In this document: piece by piece, positions 2,295 to 39,048 of the stretch | Position numbering within the stretch: position 1 is the stretch's first letter | How the letters are laid out: every line of letters starts with the position of its first letter | Assembly (NCBI GenBank): GCA_003223135.1 | Contig: QHXX01000023.1 | Span: 64,120 to 128,119, forward strand | Source of the DNA: Acidobacteriota bacterium | GTDB taxonomy: Bacteria > Acidobacteriota > Polarisedimenticolia > Gp22-AA2 | Direction: 5' to 3' | Length of the DNA: 64,000 nucleotides | Position numbers and translations under genes: made by a program | Notes under the pieces: model-generated | Database searches by the model: none | The model's input: the letters and a program-made list of their open reading frames with translations, nothing else | Told to the model about the DNA's origin: nothing

Positions 2295-3188
2295 ATGCGC
2301 GACGTCCTGATGCGGGCCTCCACCTGGCCGCGCGTCCTGGCCCTGGCCCGCGGCCGGCTGCCCCTCGGGCAGCGCACCCTCATCATGGGCATCCTGAACG
2401 TCACCCCCGACTCGTTCTCCGACGGGGGTCAGTACCTCGATCCGTCCCGGGCCGTCGACCGGGCGGTGCAAATGGCGCGACAGGGGGCCGACCTGATCGA
2501 CATCGGCGGCGAGTCAACCCGCCCCGGGTCGAAGCCGGTATCCCTCAAAGAGGAGTTGCGGCGGGTCATGCCGGTCCTCGAGGCGGTGGTCGAGGCCGTC
2601 CGGGCCCTTCCCGACCGGCGGCCGTTCCTGTCGGTCGACACGCGCAAGGCGGAGGTCGTCCGGCGCGCCGCCGCCGCGGGTGCCGACCTGATCAACGACA
2701 CTTCCGGCCTGACGCACGACCCGGCCATGGCGGCGGCCGTGGCGGAGAGCGGACTTCCGCTCGTATTGCAGCACATCCGCGGCACGCCCGGGACCATGCA
2801 AAAGCACCCGCGCTACACACATCTGATGCCCGAGATCGCCGCCTTCCTGCGCGTGCAGATGGAAAAGGCCGTTCGTGCCGGCGTGCGTGAGGATAAGATC
2901 GTCATCGATCCCGGCATCGGGTTCGGCAAGCGCCGCCGGGACAACCTGGCGATCCTTCGAAATCTGGAAGTGCTTGTCTCGCTGGGGCGGCCGATCCTGG
3001 TTGGCGCGTCGCGCAAGTCGTTCCTCAAGGAGGGACACCCCCTGCCGCCCGCCGACCGTCTGGAGGCGAGCCTCGCCGCGGAGGCATTGGCCATCGCGGG
3101 GGGCGCTGATATTATTCGGGTGCATGACGTCCGGGAGGCGGTACGCGTTGCCTCCCTATGCGATGCCGTCCTCAGAAACCATGATTGA
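2295..3188 (+). CDS. folP: dihydropteroate synthase
   Basis: Translation MGILNVTPDSFSDGG...GGESTRPG...DPGIGFGK...IRVHDV matches DHPS pterin-binding domain; start chosen at first ATG (2295) ~30 aa before the MGILNVTPDSF motif; the same frame is open and coding-like (high GC3) back to 1875 so an N-terminal extension is possible. Confidence 0.85.
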   Translation: MRDVLMRASTWPRVLALARGRLPLGQRTLIMGILNVTPDSFSDGGQYLDPSRAVDRAVQMARQGADLIDIGGESTRPGSKPVSLKEELRRVMPVLEAVVEAVRALPDRRPFLSVDTRKAEVVRRAAAAGADLINDTSGLTHDPAMAAAVAESGLPLVLQHIRGTPGTMQKHPRYTHLMPEIAAFLRVQMEKAVRAGVREDKIVIDPGIGFGKRRRDNLAILRNLEVLVSLGRPILVGASRKSFLKEGHPLPPADRLEASLAAEALAIAGGADIIRVHDVREAVRVASLCDAVLRNHD

Positions 3189-4011
3189 ATCGCTGCTCTC
3201 GCAGATCGCGTCCTACAGCTTCGACTGGCGCGATCTCCTCGACATTCTTCTGATGACCGTGCTGATCTACCAGATCGGTCTGCTGCTGAAGGGCACGCGG
3301 GCGCTGCAGACGCTCCTCGGCGTCCTTCTCGTGGTCGTTGCCTACGGGATCACCGCCCCGGAGCGCCCCCTGTATCTGCGCACGTTCCACCGGGTGCTCG
3401 GGCAGGTGCTCTTCTACTCTCCCTTCGCCATCATCATTCTGTTCCAGACGACCATCCGGCGGGCCCTGGCCAGGCTCGGGCGGACGTCGCTCCTGCGCCT
3501 GGGCTATCACGAGATGACCGAGAAGATGCTGGACGACATCGTGCACGCCGCCACGTCGCTCGCGGCCCGGCCGACCGGTGCGCTCATCGTGATCGAGAGG
3601 GAGCAGGCGCTCCCCGATCAGATCGAATCCGGCATCCAGATCGACGCCGCCATCTCCTACGACCTCCTGATGAACATCTTCACTCCCGGATCGCCCATGC
3701 ACGACGGTGCGGTGATCATCGGCGAGGGGCGCGTGAAGGCCGCCTCCTGTTTCCTGCCGGTGACCACCGATCCGCGGCTGTCGCGGGAGTATGGGTCGCG
3801 GCACCGGGCGGCGATTGGCTTGACCGAAGAATACGACAGCGTGGTGATCGTGATCTCGGAGGAGCGCGGCACCATCTCCGGGGCGGTCGAGGGGCGGCTT
3901 TTGGGTCCGCTCGACGCCGTCTCGCTGAAATCGTTCCTGCGTACCCACCTCGGAGGGCGTTCGTCCCGGCGCGACGCCCACACGGCCGCGGAGAGGACGC
4001 ACGCGGCCTAG
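3181..4011 (+). CDS. cdaA: diadenylate cyclase CdaA (c-di-AMP synthase, DAC domain with 3 N-terminal TM helices)
   Basis: Internal ATG of ORF 2875..4011 at 3181 (MIESLL...), overlaps folP stop by 8 nt; N-terminal TM helices plus DAC-domain motifs (DGAVII, RHRAA). Confidence 0.85.
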   Translation: MIESLLSQIASYSFDWRDLLDILLMTVLIYQIGLLLKGTRALQTLLGVLLVVVAYGITAPERPLYLRTFHRVLGQVLFYSPFAIIILFQTTIRRALARLGRTSLLRLGYHEMTEKMLDDIVHAATSLAARPTGALIVIEREQALPDQIESGIQIDAAISYDLLMNIFTPGSPMHDGAVIIGEGRVKAASCFLPVTTDPRLSREYGSRHRAAIGLTEEYDSVVIVISEERGTISGAVEGRLLGPLDAVSLKSFLRTHLGGRSSRRDAHTAAERTHAA

Positions 4012-4044
4012 GAGTGTGTTCGCGTCCAGGGATATCTTCGCGTC

Positions 4045-4800
4045 ATGCGGTTCAGCCTGAGACAGAACCTTTACTTGAAGCTCTTCTCGCTGATTCTGGC
4101 GGTCGTCTGCTGGTACGTCGTGCGCGGCGAGGAGGAGCGGGTGAGAGACTATGCCGTGCCGCTCGAGTACACGAATCTGCCCTCCTCCTACGACCTGTCG
4201 GGGCAAGTGATCGACACCGTCGCCGTGCGCCTGCGCGCCCCCGAGCCGGTCCTGCGGACGATCACCGAGGACCGCCTGTCGGCCCGCATCGATCTGTCGA
4301 AGGCGCCTCTGGGAGAGCAGTACATCACGCTCACTCCCGGGATGATCGGTGTCCCGGGTGGCGCCCGGGTCGATCAGGTCAACCCCGACCTCATCAAGGT
4401 GCGGATCGAACGCAAGATCAAGCGCGAGGTGCCGGTGGTGGCGGAGTTCGCCGGAGCTCCCCCTCGGGGTTACACGAAGATCCGGCACGTCATCGACCCG
4501 CCCATGGTGACGATCGAGGGACCGGCGAACGAGGTGACGCAGGTCATCCGGGCTCTGACCGGCACGATCCTTCTGGACGGCGAGACCGTCGACTACGAGG
4601 TCGAGGCCACGCCGATCCCCGACGCTCCATCCTGGAGCCGGGTGCACGGCGTGGCGCCGCAGGGGCCGGTGCGGGTCTCCGTGTCGATCGGCCCCGCCGG
4701 GGGCGCCTCGGAACGCGGCACCGGGTCGCCTACAGGAGACGCGCGATCCCGGGCGGCGGCCCGGCGGACGCCGCGGCGGATCGACACCGGGCGAAGATGA
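4045..4800 (+). CDS. cdaR: CdaR/YbbR-like domain protein (CdaA regulator)
   Basis: N-terminal TM anchor followed by YbbR-like repeats; conserved position between cdaA and glmM as in the Bacillus cdaA-cdaR-glmM operon. Confidence 0.7.
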   Translation: MRFSLRQNLYLKLFSLILAVVCWYVVRGEEERVRDYAVPLEYTNLPSSYDLSGQVIDTVAVRLRAPEPVLRTITEDRLSARIDLSKAPLGEQYITLTPGMIGVPGGARVDQVNPDLIKVRIERKIKREVPVVAEFAGAPPRGYTKIRHVIDPPMVTIEGPANEVTQVIRALTGTILLDGETVDYEVEATPIPDAPSWSRVHGVAPQGPVRVSVSIGPAGGASERGTGSPTGDARSRAAARRTPRRIDTGRR

Positions 4801-6233: not shown

Positions 6234-6956
6234 ATGGAGCCGGTGAGACTCGGAGTCAACGTCGATCACGTCGCCACGATCCGCGAAGCGCGCCGTGGGC
6301 GCGAGCCGGACCCGGTCGCGGCCGCGGTCCTGGCGGAGCTGGCGGGCGCCGACGGCATCACCGTGCACCTGCGCGGCGACCGCCGTCACATCCAGGACAG
6401 GGACGTGGACCTGCTGCGCCGTACCATCGGCACGCGCCTGAACCTGGAAGCGGCGGCGACGCCGCAGATGGTCACCGTCGCGGCGACCCACAAGCCGGAC
6501 ACGGTGACGCTCGTGCCGGAGCGCCGCGAGGAGATCACGACGGAGGGAGGGCTCGACGTCCTTCTGAACCACAACCTGGTGCGCAAAACGGCGCAGGACC
6601 TCAGGGCGGCGGGTGTCGTGGTGTCGGTCTTCGTCGATCCCGACTTCGACCAGATCAAGGCGATCGCCAAGCTCGAGATTGGGCTGATCGAGATCAACAC
6701 CGCCAAATACTCCGAGGCGATGAAACCCGAGCAGGCGGCCGCCGAGGCCGGCAAGGTGTCGCAGTGCGCCCGCGCCGCCGCCAGGCTGGGTCTCAAGGTC
6801 CTCGCCGGCCACGGCCTGAACTATCGCAACGTCCGCCGCGTCGTCGAGATCCCCGAGATCGAGGAGCTCAACATCGGCCACTCGATCGTGGCGCGCGCCT
6901 CTCTCGTCGGCATGGAGAGGGCCGTGCGCGAAATGAAGGAGCTCATGCGCCGATGA
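6234..6956 (+). CDS. pdxJ: pyridoxine 5'-phosphate synthase
   Basis: [15 protein letters not shown]... TIM-barrel PdxJ signature across 240 aa. Confidence 0.9.
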
Positions 6957-7972
6957 AGCGCTACGCGGCCTACGATCCTCCCGAGTACGTCGCCTTCAAG
7001 CCGGACCCGGAGGTCATGGCGGAGTACCGCGAGACCCTGAGGCGCGACCCGCGGCGCGCCCGCCTCATCGAGAAGCTCGACAGGGAGGCCCTGAACGCGG
7101 GAGCCTGTTGCGAGATGGGGATGCCGGTGGCGCAGATGCTGAAGGCGTACCTCGGCACCGCCGACCAGATCACGCGCGGCCGCGACCTGCACACCGGCGA
7201 CCCTTCGCTGGGTGTTCTCCCCCCGACCAGCCTGATGGGCAGCTTCGTCCCGGTCTTCACGGGGATCGGCCTCGCCTTCAAGCAGCGCCGGGAAAAGCGC
7301 GTCGGGCTGACCTGGCTCGGTGACGGCGCCAGCCGGACCTCCGCCTTCCACGAGGGGATCAACTTCGCCGCCGTCCTCGGCGTGCCGGTGATTTTCGTCG
7401 TGCAGAACAACCAGGTGGCGCTCGGCACCGCCGTCGAGAAGCACAGCCGTGGCCCGATGGACGAGCTGCGGCATGTCTATGGCATGGACGGAGCCTCCTG
7501 CGAGGGGAACAATGTTCTGGACGTGTACGCGGCGACGAGTCTCCTTGCGGAGCGCTGCCGCAAGGGGAAGGGACCCTTCCTCCTGACCGCCCGAACGTTC
7601 CGGATGGGAGGGCACGCCACTCACGACGAGGCCGAGGCCCGGGCCCTGTTCACCAACGAACAATTCCGTTATTGGGGGCTCCGGGATCCCATCGGCACGT
7701 ATGAGGCCTATCTTAAAGAGGACGCCCCCGCCCTGGATGGCAGGAAGCGCGCGGCCGGCGCCCGCCGCGCGGTCAACACCCGCATCCTGGAGGAGACCGA
7801 GGCGAGGGTCATCGCCGAGGTCGAGGCGGCCGAAGCAGAGGCGCTCGCGAGTCGCAGGAGCCTCATGCCCGAGCCCGAAGACGCGGTGCGTGGCGTCTAC
7901 GCCGAGCCCGGGACGCCCGGGACCCTGGTCACCCGTCCGGCTCGCGCCGCGGGCGCCCGGCGGGTATCATAG
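6953..7972 (+). CDS. thiamine-diphosphate-dependent 2-oxoacid dehydrogenase E1 alpha-like subunit (divergent N-terminus)
   Basis: Internal ATG (MKRYAAY) of ORF 6764..7972, ATGA overlap with pdxJ stop; TPP-binding motif [35 protein letters not shown] and [11 protein letters not shown]. Confidence 0.7.
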
Positions 7973-14642: not shown

Positions 14643-14717
14643 GGGCGGTTAGCTCAGCGGGAGAGCACCTGCCTTACAAGCAGGGGGTCACTGGTTCGAA
14701 TCCAGTATCGCCCACCA
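14643..14717 (+). tRNA. tRNA-Val (anticodon TAC)
   Basis: Cloverleaf folded by hand: acceptor GGGCGGT/ATCGCCC (one G-T wobble), anticodon stem CCTGC/GCAGG, loop CTTACAA, T-arm GGTTCGAATCC, encoded CCA. Confidence 0.93.
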
Positions 14718-14765
14718 TGGGCCCCCGTCAGCGTGAGGGGGGCGCCGCGGGTCCCACCCGAGTGC

Positions 14766-14842
14766 GGGGTCGTAGTTCAGCTGGTTAGAACGCCGGCCTG
14801 TCAAGCCGGAGGTCGCGGGTTCGAGCCCCGTCGACCCCGCCA
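14766..14842 (+). tRNA. tRNA-Asp (anticodon GTC)
   Basis: Acceptor GGGGTCG/CGACCCC, anticodon stem CCGGC/GCCGG, loop CTGTCAA, T-loop GTTCGAG, discriminator G, encoded CCA. Confidence 0.93.
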
Positions 14843-21445: not shown

Positions 21446-21489
21446 GAGGGCGGTTCGCTCTCCGTATGATTGGAAAACCCGCTCCGGGT

Positions 21490-21900
21490 GGCGGGCCGCA
21501 GCGGGGTGCGGCTCATGCTCGCTCGCGCCGGCACTTCTGTGTCCATCCGCTCCGCATGGCGCGGCTCGAAATCGCCGCACCCCGCTGCGCCCCGCCACCT
21601 GACCTTCGGGATGATTCCTGCGGCTGATCGGGTCGCCCTCCGCTCGAATCGCAACGAGGGCGGTCGACCCGATGCCCACCGCCTGCGACAGCCTCGGGCT
21701 TTCTTGGTCGGTTGCCATCCACTTCCTCTCTGACGTTGGCCGCTGACGTGGTCTCGGCGGTGAGCGGCGCCGGGGGGCGCGCCCGCCGGGCCGTCTGAGA
21801 CCGCGCGCCGGGGCCCCGCCGCGCGCTTCACAGCGCGGTGGGCGGCGCGTGGCGAAGCGAGGGGAGGCTTGCGCAGCAAGCCGGACCCGTGCCCGGCGGG
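21490..21900. repeat. intergenic dispersed repeat, copy A (two conserved blocks ~21490-21610 and ~21799-21890)
   Basis: Block 1 (~80% identical to 37918-38040, with 28 identical nt GCATGGCGCGGCTCGAAATCGCCGCACC) and block 2 (~96% identical over 92 nt to 38157-38248, containing hairpin GGCTTGCGCAGCAAGCC). Confidence 0.6.
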
Positions 21901-21994
21901 TGCGCCCCCCGGCGCCGCATGCACCCGGAAAGACTTGACGCCCGGCCGGTACAACGAGTAGAAACGCGGCGCACCGACAAACAAGGAGCCCGTG

Positions 21995-25983: not shown

Positions 25984-28900
25984 TCAGCTCGCGGTCCGGA
26001 CCCCGGTGGTATCGAAGTCGGCCGTACCGGGGACTCTCGTCGTCTGCGGCGGCGCAGCCGGGTCGGAGGCGCGCCAGAGGTCGCGGACCCAGCGGGCGGC
26101 GGCCTCGACGCCGAGGTTGATGTAAGGCAGGACGATGAGCGTCAGGAGAGTCGACGAGGCCAGGCCCCCGATCACGGTCCGGGCGAGAGGATAGTAGTAG
26201 ACGTCGCCGCCCAGGGTGGAATGGCCGAGGGCCAGCGGGATCAGCCCGACGATGGCAGTCAGCGCGGTCATCAGGACCGCGCGCAGCCGGTCGCGCCCGG
26301 CCTGCAGGATCGCCTCGTCGCGTCCCAGGCCGGCCCGCCGCAGCTGGTTCATGTGGTCGAGAAGGACGATGCCGTTCTTCACCACGATGCCGATCAGCAT
26401 CAAAAGACCGATCTGGGCCATCAGATTGAACGGCGTGCGGGTCGCGGCCAAAAGCCAGGCGGCGCCCGGCAGCGCGAACGGGATCGAAAAAAGGATCGCG
26501 AAGGGCTGCGCGACCGATTCGAACAGCGACGCCATGGCGAGATAGACCAGGACGAGCGCCAGGAGGAAGTTGATCCCCATCTGCTGGTTCTCCTCTCCCT
26601 GCTGGATGATCTTGTCGTCGTAGGACCAGGTGTAGCCCGGCGGCAGGTCGAAGGAGTCCATCAGCGCGGTGATCTGTTTCTGCGTGCTTTGCCAGTCCTT
26701 CCCTTCGTAGGTGGCGTTGACCGCGACCCGCACCTTGCGGTTCTCGCGCGCGATCTGGTCGGCGCGCCGGATGACCTGGAACGAGGCGATATCGCCCAGG
26801 CGCACCGGCCGGTCCGGCGGGCCCAGCTGGATCGCCCTGAGGTCCTCGAGGTTCTCGCGATCGATCTGCCGCAGCTCCAGCCAGGACTCGACCTCCTTGT
26901 CCCCGGTGTTGAACCGCCGCAGGCGCATCCCGCCGAGGGTGAACTGGAAGATCTGCGACACGTCGTCGGCCGTCAGGCCGGCGCGCAGGCTCTTGGCCCG
27001 ATCGATCACCACCTGGATCTCATTGCGTCCCTTGTTGAGGGACGAATTGATGTCCTGCACCCCCTCGACGGTCGACAGGCGTCGCGCCGCCTCGTCGGCG
27101 AGCTTCGTCAGGATGCCGCTGTCATGCCCGAAGAACTTGACCGCGAAGTAGGTGCTGTTGCCCCCTTCCTGCGCCTCCTCGGAGAAGAAGATGCGGGCGC
27201 CCGGGACCTGGGGCAGCTCGTCCCGGATCTGCTTGCGGATCGCCTTGATCTCGTCGTCGCCGATGTTCTCGCGCGTCAGAATGAGCACGGTGCCCGCTTC
27301 GTTTTCGCGGAAGAAGCTGTAGATCGACTTGATGAAGAAGCGCTCCCGGTTGGCGCGGAAGAACGCCTCGGCGGTGCTCACCGCCTTCTCGGCGTCCGAC
27401 TTGTAGGCGAAATCGGAGAACTCATACCGCATGAACAGCCGCTTGTTGCTGACCCCGGCGAACAGCGCCGTCTGCACCATCCCGGTCATGAACGGGACGA
27501 CCCCGGCGCCCAGCCCCAGCACGACGATGAGCAGTGTCCAGGCCTTGTGTCGCAGGGTCCAGGCGAGCGCCGCGACGTAGCGCTCCTCCAGCCAGGCGAG
27601 GCTCTTCGGCTGCTCCGCCGGCCGGCGCCGCAGCCACCAGGCCGACATGAGGGGAATCAGCGTCAGCGACGAAAACAGGGAGCAGGCGAGCGAGATCGAG
27701 ATCGACAGGCCCACCTCCTTCAGCCAGGTGGTGAGCTCTGTGCTGGCGCCGACGACCAGGGGCAGGAAGACGATGATCGTCGTGAGGGTCGAGCAGGTCA
27801 CCGCCATCGACACCTCGCGCGCCCCGATCTGCGCCGCGAGGTTTGCGTCGCTTACCGTGCGCCGGCGGCGGTCGATCGACTCGAGGACGACGATGGCGTC
27901 GTCCACCAGCATCCCGATGCCGAGCATCAGCCCGCACATGGACAGGATGTTGAGTGTCTTGCCCATGAAATACATCAGGCCGCAGGCCGCGATGACCGAA
28001 AACGGAATACACAGCGACACGATGAACGTCGAGTCGAAGCGGCGCAGGAAGAAGTACAGCACGATGATGGCGAATACGCCACCGAGGATGCCGGCGTGCT
28101 TCAAGCCGTCGATCCCGGAGGTGATCTGTTTCGCCTGGTCGTCGAAGGTGAAGAGCTTGATCCCGTTCAGGAGCGGATCCTTGTCGATGTCCTCCGTGAT
28201 GACCTTCATCACGGCGCGCACGACGTCGACGGTGTTGGCCGTGGACTCCTTGAAGATGTCCAGGGCCACCGCCTGGCTGCCGTCGAGATGACGGCCGATG
28301 CCGATCGGCGGCTCTTCGTAACGGATCTCGGCGATGTCCTTGAGCTTGAGCCCGCGGTCGTTCACCGAGAGCTCGCCGATCGCCTCCAGCGACTCGAACG
28401 ACCCCAGGGCGCGCGCCGTGTAGCGCAGGCCGTCGTGGCTGACCTGCCCGAGCACCAGGTTCGAGGTCGCCCCCTGCAGCCGCTGCAGGAGAGAGCCGAT
28501 GTCGACGCCGTGCTCCTTGATCCGATCGAGGACCAGGTCGATGAAGATCTCGCGCGCCTCGACACCGCTGAGGCTGACGCGCGCCACGCCGGGGACCCGG
28601 CGGATGCGGTTCACCACGCGGCTCTCGAGCAGGTCGTAATTCTTCGACAGGTCGATCCCCTCGGTGGCGATGCGCGACTGCACCACCGGAATGTCGCTGG
28701 TGTTGAAGGAGACGATCAGGATCTCGCCGATCCCCTCCGGCAGGCTCGGCTTGACCTGGTCCATCTTCTCGCTCACCTGCATCCGCACGATGTCGAGGTT
28801 CTGGCCCCAGTTGAATTCGAGCTGGATCTCGGCACTGTCGGCGGTCGAGGTCGAGCCGAGCCGATTCACCCCCGGGATGGTGGCCAGGACCTCTTCCACC

Positions 28901-29133: not shown

Positions 29134-32100
29134 CTACAGCTCCTGCCGCGTCGGGACCGGGCCCGGCTCGACCCCGTCGGCGAAGCGGGCCGAAAGGGGG
29201 CTCCCCAGGGCCGGCTGCGGCAGGAAGCCGGATCCGGGAGCCGCGCTCGATGATTCGGTTTCAGGGGTCATGCCCGGGGCTCCGTCGCCCCCCGGCGCCG
29301 GGGCGCCGGCGACCGCCGGGACGAACGCCTTGCGGTCGACGAGCGTGTAGATCACCGGGATGACGATGAGGGTCAGGACGGTCGACACGCTCAGGCCGCC
29401 GATGACGGTCACCGCCAAAGGCCCGCGCAGCTCGGCCCCCTCGCCCAGTCCCAGCGCCATCGGCAAAAGGCCCAGGATGGTCGTGGCCGTGGTCATCAGG
29501 ATCGGGCGCATGCGCCGGAGCCCGGCCTCGATGAGCGCCTCTTCGCGCGGCATCCCCTCGGAGCGCAGCATGTTCACGGCGTCGATCAGGACGATGGCGT
29601 TCTTGACCACGATCCCGGCCAGCATCACCGCGCCGATCATCGCCACCACGTTGACCGAGTGCCCGGTGACGACGAGCGCCAGGACCGCGCCGATCACGCC
29701 GAGCGGTACTGTGAACATGACGACGAACGGATGCAGGAGCGACTCGAACTCGCAGGCCATCACCAGGTACACCAGGAAGATCGCCAGCGCCATCGCCATC
29801 TTCAGCGACTGGAACGAGCGCTGCATCTCGTCCTCCTGGCCGCTCAGCCCGGCGACGACGCCGGCCGGGAAGGAGTGCCGCCCGATCGTCGCCCGCACGT
29901 CGGCCGCCACCGCCCCCATGTCCCGCCCCGAGATGTCGCCGGAGATGACCGCCGCGCGCTTCTGCGCCACGCGCCGGATCTCGCTCGGCCCCTCCGCCAG
30001 CTTCACGTCGGCGACCGACTTGAGGAAGATCGGCACGCCGTCGCGCTGCGCGACGATCATCCCGCTGACGTCGTCCACCGTGGCGCTCCCGACCTCGACC
30101 GAGCGCACCAGGATGTTGATCTCACGGTCGCCCTCGAGGAAGCGGGTCGCCACCTCGCCCTGCACCTTGTTGCGCACGGTCGTGGCCACCTGGAACAGGT
30201 CGAGCCCGAGCCTGGAGAGCTGCTCGCGGTTGAAGGTGAGCTGCAGCTCGGGGTTGCCGATCTCCATCGACGACTTCACGTCGACCAGTCCCGGGACCTT
30301 TTCGATCTCCTTCTTCAGGGACGCGGCCGAAGTGTCCAGATCGGTCAGGCTGTCGCCGTAGATCTCGACCTCGATCGGCGTGCGGAACGTGAAGTAGGAC
30401 GGGCGCTCGAACTTGTAGCGCGCGATGCGCGTCGATTCCAGCCGCGATCGCAGGACCGCCGCTACGGCCTCCTCGTCCTTGCGCCCCAGGCCTTTCTTGA
30501 GGCGCACCTGAAGGCGGGCGGCGTTCTCGCCCTCCGTCCCGGTCTTCGAGAGCGACAGCCCGGCCCCGCCGATGATGCTGGAGACCGCGTCGACCCGCGG
30601 GTCGTCCTTGAGGACCGCCTGGACGTCCTGAACGAAGCGGTCGGTCGAATCGAGCGGCGTCCCCTCCGGCAGCTCGACCAGGAAGCTGAACTCCCCCTGC
30701 GAGAAGGACGGGATCAGGTCGATCCCCAGTCCCTGCGCCAGAGCCAGGGACCCCAGGAAGGCGAGGAGCGCCGTGCCCAGGACCGTCCCCGGCGCCCGCA
30801 GCGACCAGCGCAGGACGACGGGGTACGACTTCATGACGGCGTCCAGGCCGCGGTCGAACGTGTAGGTGATCGGACGCGCCACCCGGGCGATGAACGACCC
30901 CGTGACGCCGGCCCAGCGGCGGACATACCGCAGGCCGACCCCCGGGGCTGTGACGAACGAGCGATGCAAGAGACGCTTCATGCCCTGTCTGTCCCCGGCG
31001 GTCGCGGCGGCGGCCGGCGCCGCCGGGCGCGCGGCCCCCATGAGCGCCGAGACCATCGGGATGATTGTGAGCGACACGACCAAAGACGCCAGGAGCGAGA
31101 ACGACACGGTCAGCGCCTGATCGCGGAACAGCTGCGCCGCGATCCCCTGGACGAACACCACCGGCACGAACACGGCGATCGTCGTCAGGGTCGACGCGAC
31201 CACGGCGCGGCCGACCTCCATAGCACCCCGCTGCGCGGCCACCGCCCCCGACTCGCCCCGCTCGCGCCTCTTGAAGATCGCCTCCAGGACGACGATCGAG
31301 TCGTCCACCAGCATGCCGACGCCGAGCGCCAGGCCGCCGAGCGACATGACGTTGAGCGTCGTGCCGGTCTGGTACATCAGGAAGAAGGTGGCGATGATCG
31401 AGATCGGGATCGAGACGCTGATGATCAGAGTGCTGTAGAGATCCTTGAGGAACAGCAGGATGATCAAGATGGAAAGGGCGCCCCCCTCGAGGGCGTTGAC
31501 GATCACCTCGTGGATCGAATCCTGAATGAAGCGGGACTGGTCGACACCCGCGGTCACCGTGATGCCGGACGGCAGCTCCTTCTGCACGGCCTCGAGCCGC
31601 TTCTGCACGGCGCGCGCCACGGACACGGTGTTGGCGTCCCCTTCCTTGTAGATCGCCAGCTCGACCGCTTCCTCACCGCCGAAGCGCGTGATCGCCTCGC
31701 GCTGCTTGTGGCCGCGCGTCACCTCGGCCACGTCGGACATCACGACGTTGCGCCCGTCCTTCGTCACCAGGACGGTCTTCATGATGTCGTCCAGATCCTT
31801 GAACTCGTTGCGGGAGCGCACCAGGTAGCGCGCCTCCTGCTCGTACAGGCTGCCGCCCGCCTGGTTGACGTTCTCACGCAAGAGCTTCTGGTTGACGTCC
31901 TGGATGCCGACGCCGAGAAGGGAGAGCTTCCCCTGGTCGACCCGGACCTGGATCTCCTCTTCGTAGCCGCCGTTCACCTTGATCGCCGCGACCCCCTCGG
32001 TCGACTCGAGGTCCTTCTTCAGCACTTCGTCCGCGACGTAGCGGAGCTGGTACAGGTTCGCGCTGCCGCGGAGGTACAGGCGGAGGATCGGGTCGTTGTT

Positions 32101-37865: not shown

Positions 37866-37917
37866 TAGCCCGCGGCCGGACCCAACGACGACCACCGAGG
37901 TCCCCCGACCTCCACCT

Positions 37918-38250
37918 GGCGGACCGCAGCGCGGCGCGGCTCATGCTCACTCGCGCGGGGTCTCCCCCGGACATCTCGCGCGCATGGCGCGGCTCGAAAT
38001 CGCCGCACCGCGCTGCGGCCCGCCATGCACCTGCGGGGCTTCATCGCGAGCCTATCGGAGAGTCTTCCTGTGCCCGAACCCGACCAGTTCGATGAGAGCG
38101 TGTCGGCGTGAGCCCCGAGGTGCGGCGCCGAGGCTTGCGCTCGCCGGAGCGTGCGAGACCGCGCGCCGGGGCCCCGCCGCGCGCGTTCCAGCGCGGTGGG
38201 CGGCGCGTGGCGAGCCGAGGGGAGGCTTGCGCAGCAAGCCGGACCCGTCT
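37918..38250. repeat. intergenic dispersed repeat, copy B (blocks ~37918-38040 and ~38157-38248)
   Basis: See copy A (21490-21900); spacer between blocks is ~70 nt shorter than in copy A. Confidence 0.6.
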
Positions 38251-38307
38251 CCGGCGGGCGCAGGGCTCGGCGCCACCCGGCCGGAGATGCTCCCGCGATC
38301 AGGGCTC

Positions 38308-38364
38308 TTGAAATCGGGATGGACGGGTGGTAGATTCATGTCCTCGTTTCAAACGATCGTTTTG
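38308..38364 (+). promoter_or_regulatory. promoter (TTGAAA-17 nt-TAGATT) plus palindromic operator AAACGATCGTTT in the leader of the tetR-efflux operon
   Basis: -35 at 38308-38313, -10 at 38331-38336; 12-bp perfect palindrome at ~38351-38362 just downstream of predicted TSS, typical TetR autoregulatory operator. Confidence 0.5.
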
Positions 38365-38382
38365 ACGGCAGGAGAGACCCGC

Positions 38383-39048
38383 ATGATCCCGGCCCGCGCC
38401 ATCGATCGAGGGTCACCCGAGACCCCGACGAAGACGCGCGAGCGTCTCCTCGACACTGCCGAGCGCCTGTTCGCCGAGCGCGGTTTCCGGGCGGTGTCGG
38501 TGCGCGTCATCACCTCCCACGCCGGCTGCAACGTCGCCGCGGTCAACTACTACTTCGGCGGGAAGGAAAACCTGTACCGGGAGATGTTCCGGCGCCGCCT
38601 CGTCGCCCTGCGCGAGCAGCGCATCTCAAGCATCCGCCGGGCGATGGCCGAGGCGGGAAGCGGGGCGAGCCTGGAGCTGCCGCTGCGCGCCTTTACCACC
38701 GCGTTCCTCGAGCCGCATCTCGACCAGAGCGGCGGCCGGCGCCTGATGCGACTGTTCTCACGGGAGCTCCTGGATCCGCATCTCAAGGCAGGGACCCTGC
38801 AGCGGGAGGTGATCGAGCCGGTCCACAGCGCGCTGGTCGAGGCGATCCAGGCGGTCTGTCCCGGTCTCGATGCCAGCGCGGCGCGCCGGTCCATCCATTC
38901 GCTGGTCGCCCAGCTGGTGCATGTCGTGCACATGCGGAACGCCCCGGGAGTCCTGCGCGGGGCGGGACGGGAGGACTTTTCGTTCCCCGCCGTCGTCGAT
39001 CACATCGTCAGGTTCTCCGCCGCCGGCATCCGCGGCAGCCTGACATGA
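38383..39048 (+). CDS. TetR/AcrR-family transcriptional regulator
   Basis: HTH TRERLLDTAERLFAERGFRAVSVRVITSHAGCNVAAVNYYFGGKENLY; start at ATG 38383 with GGAGAG SD (the upstream ATG 38338 abuts the -10 box). Confidence 0.8.
   Translation: MIPARAIDRGSPETPTKTRERLLDTAERLFAERGFRAVSVRVITSHAGCNVAAVNYYFGGKENLYREMFRRRLVALREQRISSIRRAMAEAGSGASLELPLRAFTTAFLEPHLDQSGGRRLMRLFSRELLDPHLKAGTLQREVIEPVHSALVEAIQAVCPGLDASAARRSIHSLVAQLVHVVHMRNAPGVLRGAGREDFSFPAVVDHIVRFSAAGIRGSLT

Follow-up and report, generated by a model that had tools for sequence, protein, structure and literature searches.

A modular, structured interspersed repeat family in the intergenic DNA of uncultured soil Acidobacteriota

Structured repeats that resemble MITEs (miniature transposable elements with inverted repeats), such as bcr1 in the Bacillus cereus group, ERIC/IRU, BOX in pneumococcus and Correia, are 100-170 nt long and combine a conserved structure with compensatory changes. 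BOX is modular, with parts A, B and C, and MITE-like repeats lie near gene ends or promoters, where their effects at the RNA level are debated. A true MITE ends in conserved terminal inverted repeats and is accompanied by a target-site duplication. In repetitive extragenic palindromic (REP) sequences, one end of the palindrome is marked by a conserved tetranucleotide, GTAG or CGTC (PMC3733652), and IS110/IS1111 insertion sequences (IS) target repeats of the REP type (PMC1525189, PMC11208160, PMC12288879, 10.64898/2026.03.19.712850). Finally, the RAYT-like TIRYT genes have repeat families of their own and include an Acidobacteria-specific group (PMC3733652). Here we describe a repeat that invites comparison with all of these systems. 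It came to light in a 64,000-nt stretch of DNA from an Acidobacteriota bacterium (contig QHXX01000023.1 of assembly GCA_003223135.1, positions 64,120 to 128,119), which we call the window and whose own coordinates we use throughout. The repeat consists of two folded blocks, block 1 and block 2, on either side of a spacer of ~100 nt, and it is interspersed in the DNA of uncultured soil Acidobacteriota. We hold, with moderate confidence, that its copies are non-autonomous elements akin to REP sequences, bacterial interspersed mosaic elements (BIMEs) and REPINs, or to MITE-like repeats.

A modular repeat family with a maintained fold

Two intergenic regions of the window have two collinear blocks in common. 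Copy A lies between a sulfite-reductase-like gene and the gene of a tricorn-like protease, and copy B between an ornithine-cyclodeaminase-family gene (OCD) and a tetR-efflux operon, these gene identities being taken from Pfam. Block 1 aligns over 116 nt at 80% identity (21482-21597 against 37910-38025). Block 2 aligns over 153 nt at 86% identity (21764-21916 against 38122-38274), and its inner ~92 nt are nearly identical. Both repeats, with their identical cores and their hairpins, are present where a first-pass annotation of the sequence had placed them. That annotation spoke of a two-copy family, and within the window this is correct: copies A and B, 16.4 kb apart, are the sole pair. A 21-nt core of block 1 and a 17-nt hairpin of block 2 each occur exactly twice, against 0.02 and 0.32 occurrences expected from shuffled sequence. 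The inverted-repeat arms, 26 nt in block 1 and 28 nt in block 2, are 96% complementary, and the blocks fold with z-scores of -5.3 to -9.4 relative to dinucleotide shuffles. A third match at 7744-7774 was rejected as a family copy, being a chance GC-rich match within coding sequence.

Beyond the window the two-copy description does not hold, and the family is modular, multi-copy and intergenic. A 25-mer of block 2 matched 27 JGI metagenome contigs. A covariance model of block 2 (R1), built from 22 distinct copies, finds 29 copies in the fetched DNA with at least 16 different intergenic flanks, all in soil Acidobacteriota; these come from many samples and several species, and they include inverted doublets and more diverged variants. 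The corresponding model of block 1 (R2) finds that block at no fewer than 12 sites with distinct flanks. At ~9 of the block 2 sites, block 1 lies ~100 nt upstream on the same strand, in some cases intact and in others decayed. There are also sites where block 1 has no intact block 2 beside it (L047-L049, the L-numbers being labels of fetched contigs), and there, as in L018 and L050, it flanks an IS. Moreover, block 2 forms inverted head-to-head doublets between divergent genes (L031:1640-2128, L041:5678-6134, L043:5513-5996 and L054:2593-4355), in which each copy faces its adjoining gene across a doublet spacer of ~180-190 nt that is not homologous between loci. We rejected the idea that such a doublet is a single REPIN-like mobile unit because the spacers of unrelated loci are non-homologous.

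Is the family related to anything already described? A comparison with Rfam had been proposed for both regions, and no family matched: at the gathering threshold the 4227 models gave nothing in either region or in the typical copies of L030 and L034, and in a search up to an E value of 10 the best sub-threshold hits were microRNA or CRISPR noise (E >= 0.18). A scan of viral contigs with both cores gave 0 matches, plasmid and phage sequences searched by BLASTN with the composite gave no match, and a general literature search found no intergenic repeat family of this structure for Acidobacteria. A protein search with the six-frame translation of the composite, concatenated so as to catch spurious ORF calls or a parent gene, gave no hit at E <= 0.001, although low-complexity words had probably crowded the candidate list and the result carries little information. 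Scanning a collection of genome contigs, one that lacks the source genome, with the 21-mer hairpin GAGGCTTGCGCAGCAAGCCGG recovered unrelated sequences only: isolated chance hits and a repeat of Pseudomonas guariconensis. The P. guariconensis repeat is a multi-copy family of that species' own, ~100 nt long, that carries the identical 21-mer GAGGCTTGCGCAGCAAGCCGG (L001:5881-5984 and 6275-6378; L002; L006; L008). Apart from that 21-mer it bears no relation to block 2, and it too is missing from Rfam; the shared hairpin may be a case of convergence.

Block 2 folds into a Y-shaped three-way junction. In copy A (21765-21917, + strand) the fold has a free energy of -143 kcal/mol and a z-score of -9.4, and in copy B (38123-38275, + strand) a free energy of -127.9 kcal/mol; R1 scores the two copies at 135.1 and 134.5 bits. 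A closing stem of ~27 bp opens onto a long bulged hairpin 1 and onto hairpin 2, which sits inside a GGG/CCC helix. The first-pass annotation had described block 2 as a perfect hairpin. Such a hairpin exists (hairpin 2, which in copy A is GGCTTGC-GCA-GCAAGCC at 21866-21882), but the description fell short, as the whole is a 153-nt three-way junction with its closing stem.

The fold of block 2 is maintained by compensatory change. Many positions of the closing stem differ between copies A and B with pairing kept. Over the 29 copies, 34 of the 61 pairs show double-sided changes and 97.5% of cells pair, compared with 32-46% of cells in a slid-partner control; none of 500 shuffles matched the observed values. 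Similarly, a hand alignment of 22 copies gave covariation in 26 of 61 pairs, with 97.8% of cells pairing. Covariation is strong in five of the six helices. Helix 1 has changes on both sides in 23 of its 26 pairs, and no part of the block varies more than its terminal arms. The junction helix alternates between CU/AG and GC/GC, the base of hairpin 1 changes from G:U to U-A in diverged copies, and the variable stem pairs of hairpin 2 are U-A or C-G at one position and G-C or C-G at another. The loop of hairpin 2 is GCA, with GCGA or GAGA (GNRA-type) in diverged copies. Two G:U pairs are near-invariant, and U:G pairs are frequent at several positions. Folding is also strand-specific: in 22 of 22 copies the + strand of the window folds more stably than the opposite strand, the mean difference being 14 kcal/mol.

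Block 1 is a long hairpin of 119 nt with a conserved interior (copy A, 21484-21602; copy B, 37912-38030), scored by R2 at 119.6 and 112.3 bits. In copy A an outer stem of 25-26 bp pairs 21487-21512 with 21574-21599, and the conserved interior contains CTCATGCTCGCTCGCGC and GCATGGCGCGGCTCGAAATCGCCGC. Among six copies, 7 of the 25 outer-stem pairs covary. The claim that covariation preserves pairing, made from copies A and B, is therefore borne out in both blocks, and the G-C to C-G swap on which it rested is real, since column pair 21:102 is C-G in five copies and G-C in copy A. A seventh copy, rebuilt from the flanks of an IS, has a wholly different complementary stem around the same conserved interior. 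Both blocks share this build, in which a near-invariant interior is enclosed by a long closing stem that drifts freely yet stays complementary. The strand of block 1 is less clear than that of block 2. Its mismatch types (8 A.C against 1 U.G) hint at the - strand, and by folding energy neither strand stands out (5 versus 2, p = 0.58). The middle spacer between the blocks runs from 21603 to 21764 in copy A, where its 160 nt are little conserved and exceed the family norm of ~100 nt, and from 38031 to 38122 in copy B.

None of this conservation is that of a peptide. The reading frame MARLEIAAPRC, found in both copies and set aside as non-coding by the first-pass annotation, has ACG in place of its ATG in L025 and is missing the synonymous pattern. 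The same start codon has entered GenBank: PYT37267.1, a 354-aa 'hypothetical protein' (37984-39048), begins at the ATG at 37984 inside block 1 of copy B and crosses block 2 into tetR. The true TetR has 221 aa and starts at 38383, and it is the repeat that causes the mis-annotation of PYT37267.1. On the minus strand of copy A, the spacer holds a Shine-Dalgarno-like GAGAGGAAGTGG before an ATG at 21718, which opens an open reading frame (ORF) running through block 1 (21513-21722). This ORF is probably not a gene, given that its sequence changes non-synonymously in the 99%-identical strain L038.

Turnover and mobile elements in the blocks

Copies of the family appear, decay through hairpin-internal deletions and scars, and are exchanged between near-identical strains. 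For example, at the tetR locus the flanks of the window and of L014 are 99.2-99.7% identical, whereas identity falls to 91% in the block 2 core; where the window has 253 nt comprising block 1 and the middle, L014, L016, L017 and L013 have 63 unrelated nt. At the tricorn locus, L038, L056 and L057, which are 99-99.8% identical to the window, are without 75-77 nt of the block 1 interior. Decayed copies of block 1 also occur as a stem scar in L034 and in truncated form in L024 and L037, and there are further scars and partial copies in L035 and L041. Where orthologous pairs from different species have flanks of 79-87% identity, their block 2 cores mostly agree at ~95% (range 86-96%). Taken together, the identities of core versus flank and the differences between strains look like concerted evolution or exchange among copies, and not like vertical descent.

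The repeats also leave traces in the contigs themselves. Several contigs begin or end inside block 2 (L011, L013, L020, L022 and L039), and contigs that span an IS mix the flanks of different block 1 copies. Several of the contigs that cross an IS or block 2 are chimeric (L018 and L047-50, and perhaps L012). L012:1-5805 joins the left side of copy A (the sulfite-reductase-like end, block 1 and the spacer) to the tetR side of copy B by way of block 2. This join is either an assembly chimera or a true 16.4-kb deletion by recombination between the copies.

Insertion sequences have made repeated use of both blocks. An IS110-family element of 1.4 kb lies within block 1 (L018:1577-2977), and elements of the same type occupy three or more separate copies of block 1 (L018, L047-L050). 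A relative with a 65% identical transposase lies within block 2 (L029:~229-1636), and a third, 72% identical, occupies another position in diverged block 2 copies (L054:~2846-4260; L055). A fourth related IS is inserted in an unrelated long hairpin repeat (L051-L053). In L051 this repeat, from forest soil, is seen at ~2790-2910 and 4300-4440 as GAGGCGGGAACGGGAGGGAGGCCGGCGGGGC ... GCCCCGCCGGCCTCCCTCCCGTTCCCGCC, unrelated in sequence to block 1 or block 2.

To which group do these elements belong? Their transposases are 65-92% identical and carry Pfam domains PF01548 and PF02371. They have 12-bp subterminal inverted repeats (TGAAGTGGCTGG / CCAGCCACTTCA), and the stop codon of the transposase gene (tnp) is followed by a non-coding region of 263-273 nt with a conserved scaffold and two variable segments. 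The hallmarks of IS1111 are a DEDD transposase, subterminal inverted repeats of 11-13 bp, and a long non-coding region 3' of tnp that matches the target (PMC11187229), and judged by these features the elements inside the blocks are IS1111-group members. One variable segment matches the left flank of the IS, and the other matches the complement of the right flank, just as the guide segments of seekRNAs and bridge RNAs match both sides of a target (PMC11187229, PMC11208160). One guide base sets L018 apart from L048, and their targets show the very same difference. From the match of guide to flank, at least three related IS have evidently been re-aimed at three positions across the two modules, with the conserved interiors as specific targets. 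This targeting resembles that of seekRNA/bridge-RNA elements on REP-type repeats, and it thus supports the view that the blocks are abundant, long-lived repeats. We also considered whether the blocks are themselves orphan bridge RNAs or seekRNAs of an IS, like ssr9 of ISPpu9. Inspection by eye ruled this out, as only short guide matches are shared.

Group II introns are known to insert after terminator-like hairpins. On the minus strand of L054, positions 727-2560 hold a group II intron, with Rfam D1-D4 at 2240-2507 and a reverse transcriptase/maturase ORF at 727-2115. Its start lies close behind a block 2 copy in minus orientation (2593-2693), and the block 2 hairpin may have been its landing site.

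Genomic neighbors and the competing readings

The genes downstream of the copies are unrelated to one another. They include genes for the tricorn-like protease, TetR, GAPDH-like, YqeY-like, DUF255-type and HU-like proteins and an FAD oxidoreductase, as well as the 3' end of a response regulator gene. The only promoter supported by the consensus scan is a predicted sigma-70-like promoter of the tetR-efflux operon, TTGAAA-17-TAGATT (38308-38336, + strand; one found, 0.0 expected), which starts 33 nt downstream of block 2 and which the L014-type haplotype keeps as TTGCAA-..-TAGATT. At copy A, a weak candidate promoter of the tricorn-like protease gene, TTGACG-N18-TAGAAA (21935-21964, + strand), was picked out by eye and is unreported by the scan; at most other sites promoter-like hexamers after block 2 were also noted by eye. 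No conserved promoter was found inside the element or its spacer across copies. Both window regions have 0 terminator-like sites with a U-tract, and because the U-tract is missing after the hairpins we ruled out a reading as intrinsic terminators. Some block 2 copies are convergent with the next gene, and in divergent intergenic regions copies lie upstream of both genes, where a host transcript is not expected.

Three further observations concern the rest of the window. A 135-nt direct repeat of 76% identity (27874-28008 and 31276-31410) lies in two adjacent RND (ACR_tran) genes and is most likely paralogous coding sequence outside the block 1/block 2 family. Two adjacent tRNA genes at 14643-14839 are the sole Rfam matches of the window. 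Exact protein matches were found to PYT37266.1 ('Acidobacteria bacterium') and OLE66339 ('...13_1_20CM_2_68_14').

How, then, should the repeat be read? The first-pass annotation offered a non-autonomous repeat as one of three readings, and this is the one that is favored by the unrelated neighbors, by the loss or replacement of block 1 between strains, and by the copies interrupted by IS. Under this reading, the blocks would be copied or moved via a folded single-stranded intermediate, which for block 2 would be the + strand. A trans-acting enzyme would recognize the invariant interior, the candidate class being an HUH tyrosine transposase of the RAYT/TIRYT type, and the closing stem would need only to pair. 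Gene conversion among copies would homogenize the cores. Any effects on the tricorn-like protease and on tetR-efflux would be incidental to the places where copies landed, after the upstream gene and ahead of the promoter that follows.

Several observations weigh against a mobile, non-autonomous element. No Y1_Tnp (RAYT) domain was found among the called neighbor genes of the copies, and neither a mobilizing gene nor a master copy flanking a gene was seen. The blocks have no conserved terminal inverted repeats, their arms being the part that varies most. There is no sign of a target-site duplication: the longest direct repeat in the flanks averages 4.1 nt, against 4.0 nt in a mismatched-flank control, with element ends that are somewhat uncertain. 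We saw no clean pair of filled and empty sites for block 2, and the block is kept at orthologous sites across species that are ~15-20% diverged, a retention that could reflect selection at the level of the host. The orientation of block 2 is that of the downstream gene at ~10 of 13 sites, as judged from crude gene calls around the copies; this bias fits function or strand-specific insertion alike. Covariation and near-invariant G:U pairs would be equally expected of a functional RNA. Two points of sampling must be added. The 25-mer used to ascertain copies lies in hairpin 1, which inflates the apparent invariance of the core, and sites were counted across metagenome contigs, not per genome.

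Some of these points lead to a second reading, which we regard as a serious possibility but an unlikely one: block 2, and perhaps block 1, could be a structured RNA with a general role, acting as an element for RNA 3' ends or RNA stability, as an insulator or a terminator that separates transcription units, or as a site for an RNA-binding protein, and transcribed by read-through or from a promoter of its own. RNA-level roles of this kind have been proposed for REP, ERIC and BOX elements. Such an RNA would be expected to show what block 2 shows, namely covariation in five of six helices, near-invariant G:U pairs, a + strand preference in 22 of 22 copies and, in diverged copies, GNRA-type loops in hairpin 2. 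However, it would also be expected to be transcribed, and the doublets in divergent regions (L031, L041, L043 and L054) lie where no host transcript is expected, while a U-tract, a conserved promoter and an Rfam relative are all missing. In orthologous pairs the core mostly differs less than the coding sequence beside it, and it persists at orthologous sites, yet copies disrupted by IS or truncated are tolerated. The bias in orientation toward the downstream gene and the group II intron just after one copy are further points in favor of an RNA.

It is also conceivable, although we think it rather doubtful, that block 2 represents a class of structured nucleic acid that has not been described before, either as the part that carries out catalysis or recognition in a new non-autonomous element or as a new multi-copy RNA of Acidobacteria. 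As a mobile module it might process itself or be recognized as folded single-stranded DNA or RNA, and block 1 would be its partner module. The covariation and the strand specificity are compatible with such a class, as is the want of an Rfam, terminal-repeat, target-duplication or RAYT signature. Should the conserved three-way junction turn out to be an active RNA, or else a module for the recognition of single-stranded DNA, it would amount to a new kind of mobile element.

A role at the level of DNA structure seems improbable to us. The blocks would then be cruciforms or protein-bound repeats upstream of promoters, bound by gyrase, IHF or nucleoid proteins like the BIMEs of E. coli, or would absorb supercoils between divergent promoters. 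At most sites the copies immediately precede promoter-like sequences (mostly identified by eye); this placement, the inverted doublets between divergent genes and the very long, near-perfect palindromic stems would all suit such sites. In contrast, the strand asymmetry is unexpected for a cruciform, which needs both strands: G:U pairs on the + strand are A:C on the - strand, at a cost of 14 kcal/mol. Moreover, a three-way junction with covarying internal helices exceeds the needs of a protein site.

The role that the first-pass annotation put forward for these sequences, as a riboswitch-like cis-regulatory leader or a trans-acting small RNA (sRNA) that controls the tricorn-like protease and tetR-efflux, is very unlikely and already largely refuted. 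Stable, conserved folds 100-300 nt upstream of two + strand genes were good reason to propose it. However, the promoter predicted for tetR is situated downstream of block 2, which would place block 2 outside the 5' leader, and the downstream genes are functionally unrelated across the family. Strains of 99.8% identity have lost the block 1 interior at the tricorn locus, strains of 99.5% identity have no block 1 at the tetR locus, and some copies and the next gene run toward each other. Finally, a recent local duplication without a wider family, suggested by the presence of only two copies 16.4 kb apart in 64 kb and named at the outset as the finding that would undo the proposal, can be dismissed, as many samples and several species provide at least 16 other sites, with flanks that are unrelated.

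Why does such a repeat matter? Acidobacteria are abundant in soil and mostly uncultured, and these repeats break and scramble metagenome assemblies of this lineage and mislead its annotation. R1 and R2 could be used to mask the repeats or to take a census of them. In addition, the naturally re-aimed IS1111 guides offer comparative material for work on bridge RNA and seekRNA recombinases.

Comparison with known repeats and their insertion sequences

The blocks act like REP/BIME/REPIN and MITE-like repeats yet lack several of the features by which membership of these groups is recognized. Like REP sequences, BIMEs and REPINs, they are intergenic, GC-rich, hairpin-forming and multi-copy, and their stems are compensated. 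They resemble BIMEs in being a mosaic of different palindromic units and linkers, and REPINs in forming inverted doublets. They also share with REP sequences a turnover at the level of strains, decay by deletion and a role as preferred targets of IS110/IS1111 elements (PMC1525189, PMC11208160, PMC12288879). The differences are in size and design. The units here are 119 and 153 nt long, not 20-40 nt, block 2 is branched and not a simple stem-loop, and it is the interior that is conserved and the closing stem that varies. Nor is there an invariant GTAG or CGTC tag: CGTC stands 5' of hairpin 1 in most copies, with CGTG or CGTCC in others, and GGGGTAGC follows the element in a subset of copies only.

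The repeats of TIRYT genes may be another parallel. They too are acidobacterial, longer and partly self-complementary, and they occur as singles, dimers and clusters. By analogy, TIRYT is a candidate enzyme class for a strand-specific recognition of single-stranded DNA, a lead only. No TIRYT gene was found beside any block copy, and GGGGWSAS, the motif of many TIRYT repeats, is missing from the conserved cores here, as judged by eye. We also considered integron attC sites and rejected them: RYYYAAC and GTTRRRY are absent in or within 20 nt of 24 copies, and the flanking genes are housekeeping genes, not cassettes.

With bcr1, ERIC, BOX and Correia the blocks share an interspersed, structured, compensated and modular character, with no sequence similarity. 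A parent IS sharing ends with the blocks was not found among the IS seen, which are all of the IS1111 type with unrelated ends (ATGGGATGAAGTGGCTGG...CCACTTCACAGAA); other parents were not searched for.

The insertion sequences themselves provide the last comparison. IS621 on the REPs of E. coli, and ISPpu9 and ISPpu10 on REP or hairpin sites of P. putida, likewise insert at a fixed position in a conserved, hairpin-forming repeat, and ISPpu10 is reported to require a stem-loop in its target DNA (10.64898/2026.03.19.712850). The IS1111-type elements in block 1 and block 2 share the fixed insertion position. The parallel with the targets of IS621 and ISPpu elements has its bounds, as being a target tells us about the user of a repeat and not about the nature of the repeat that is used.

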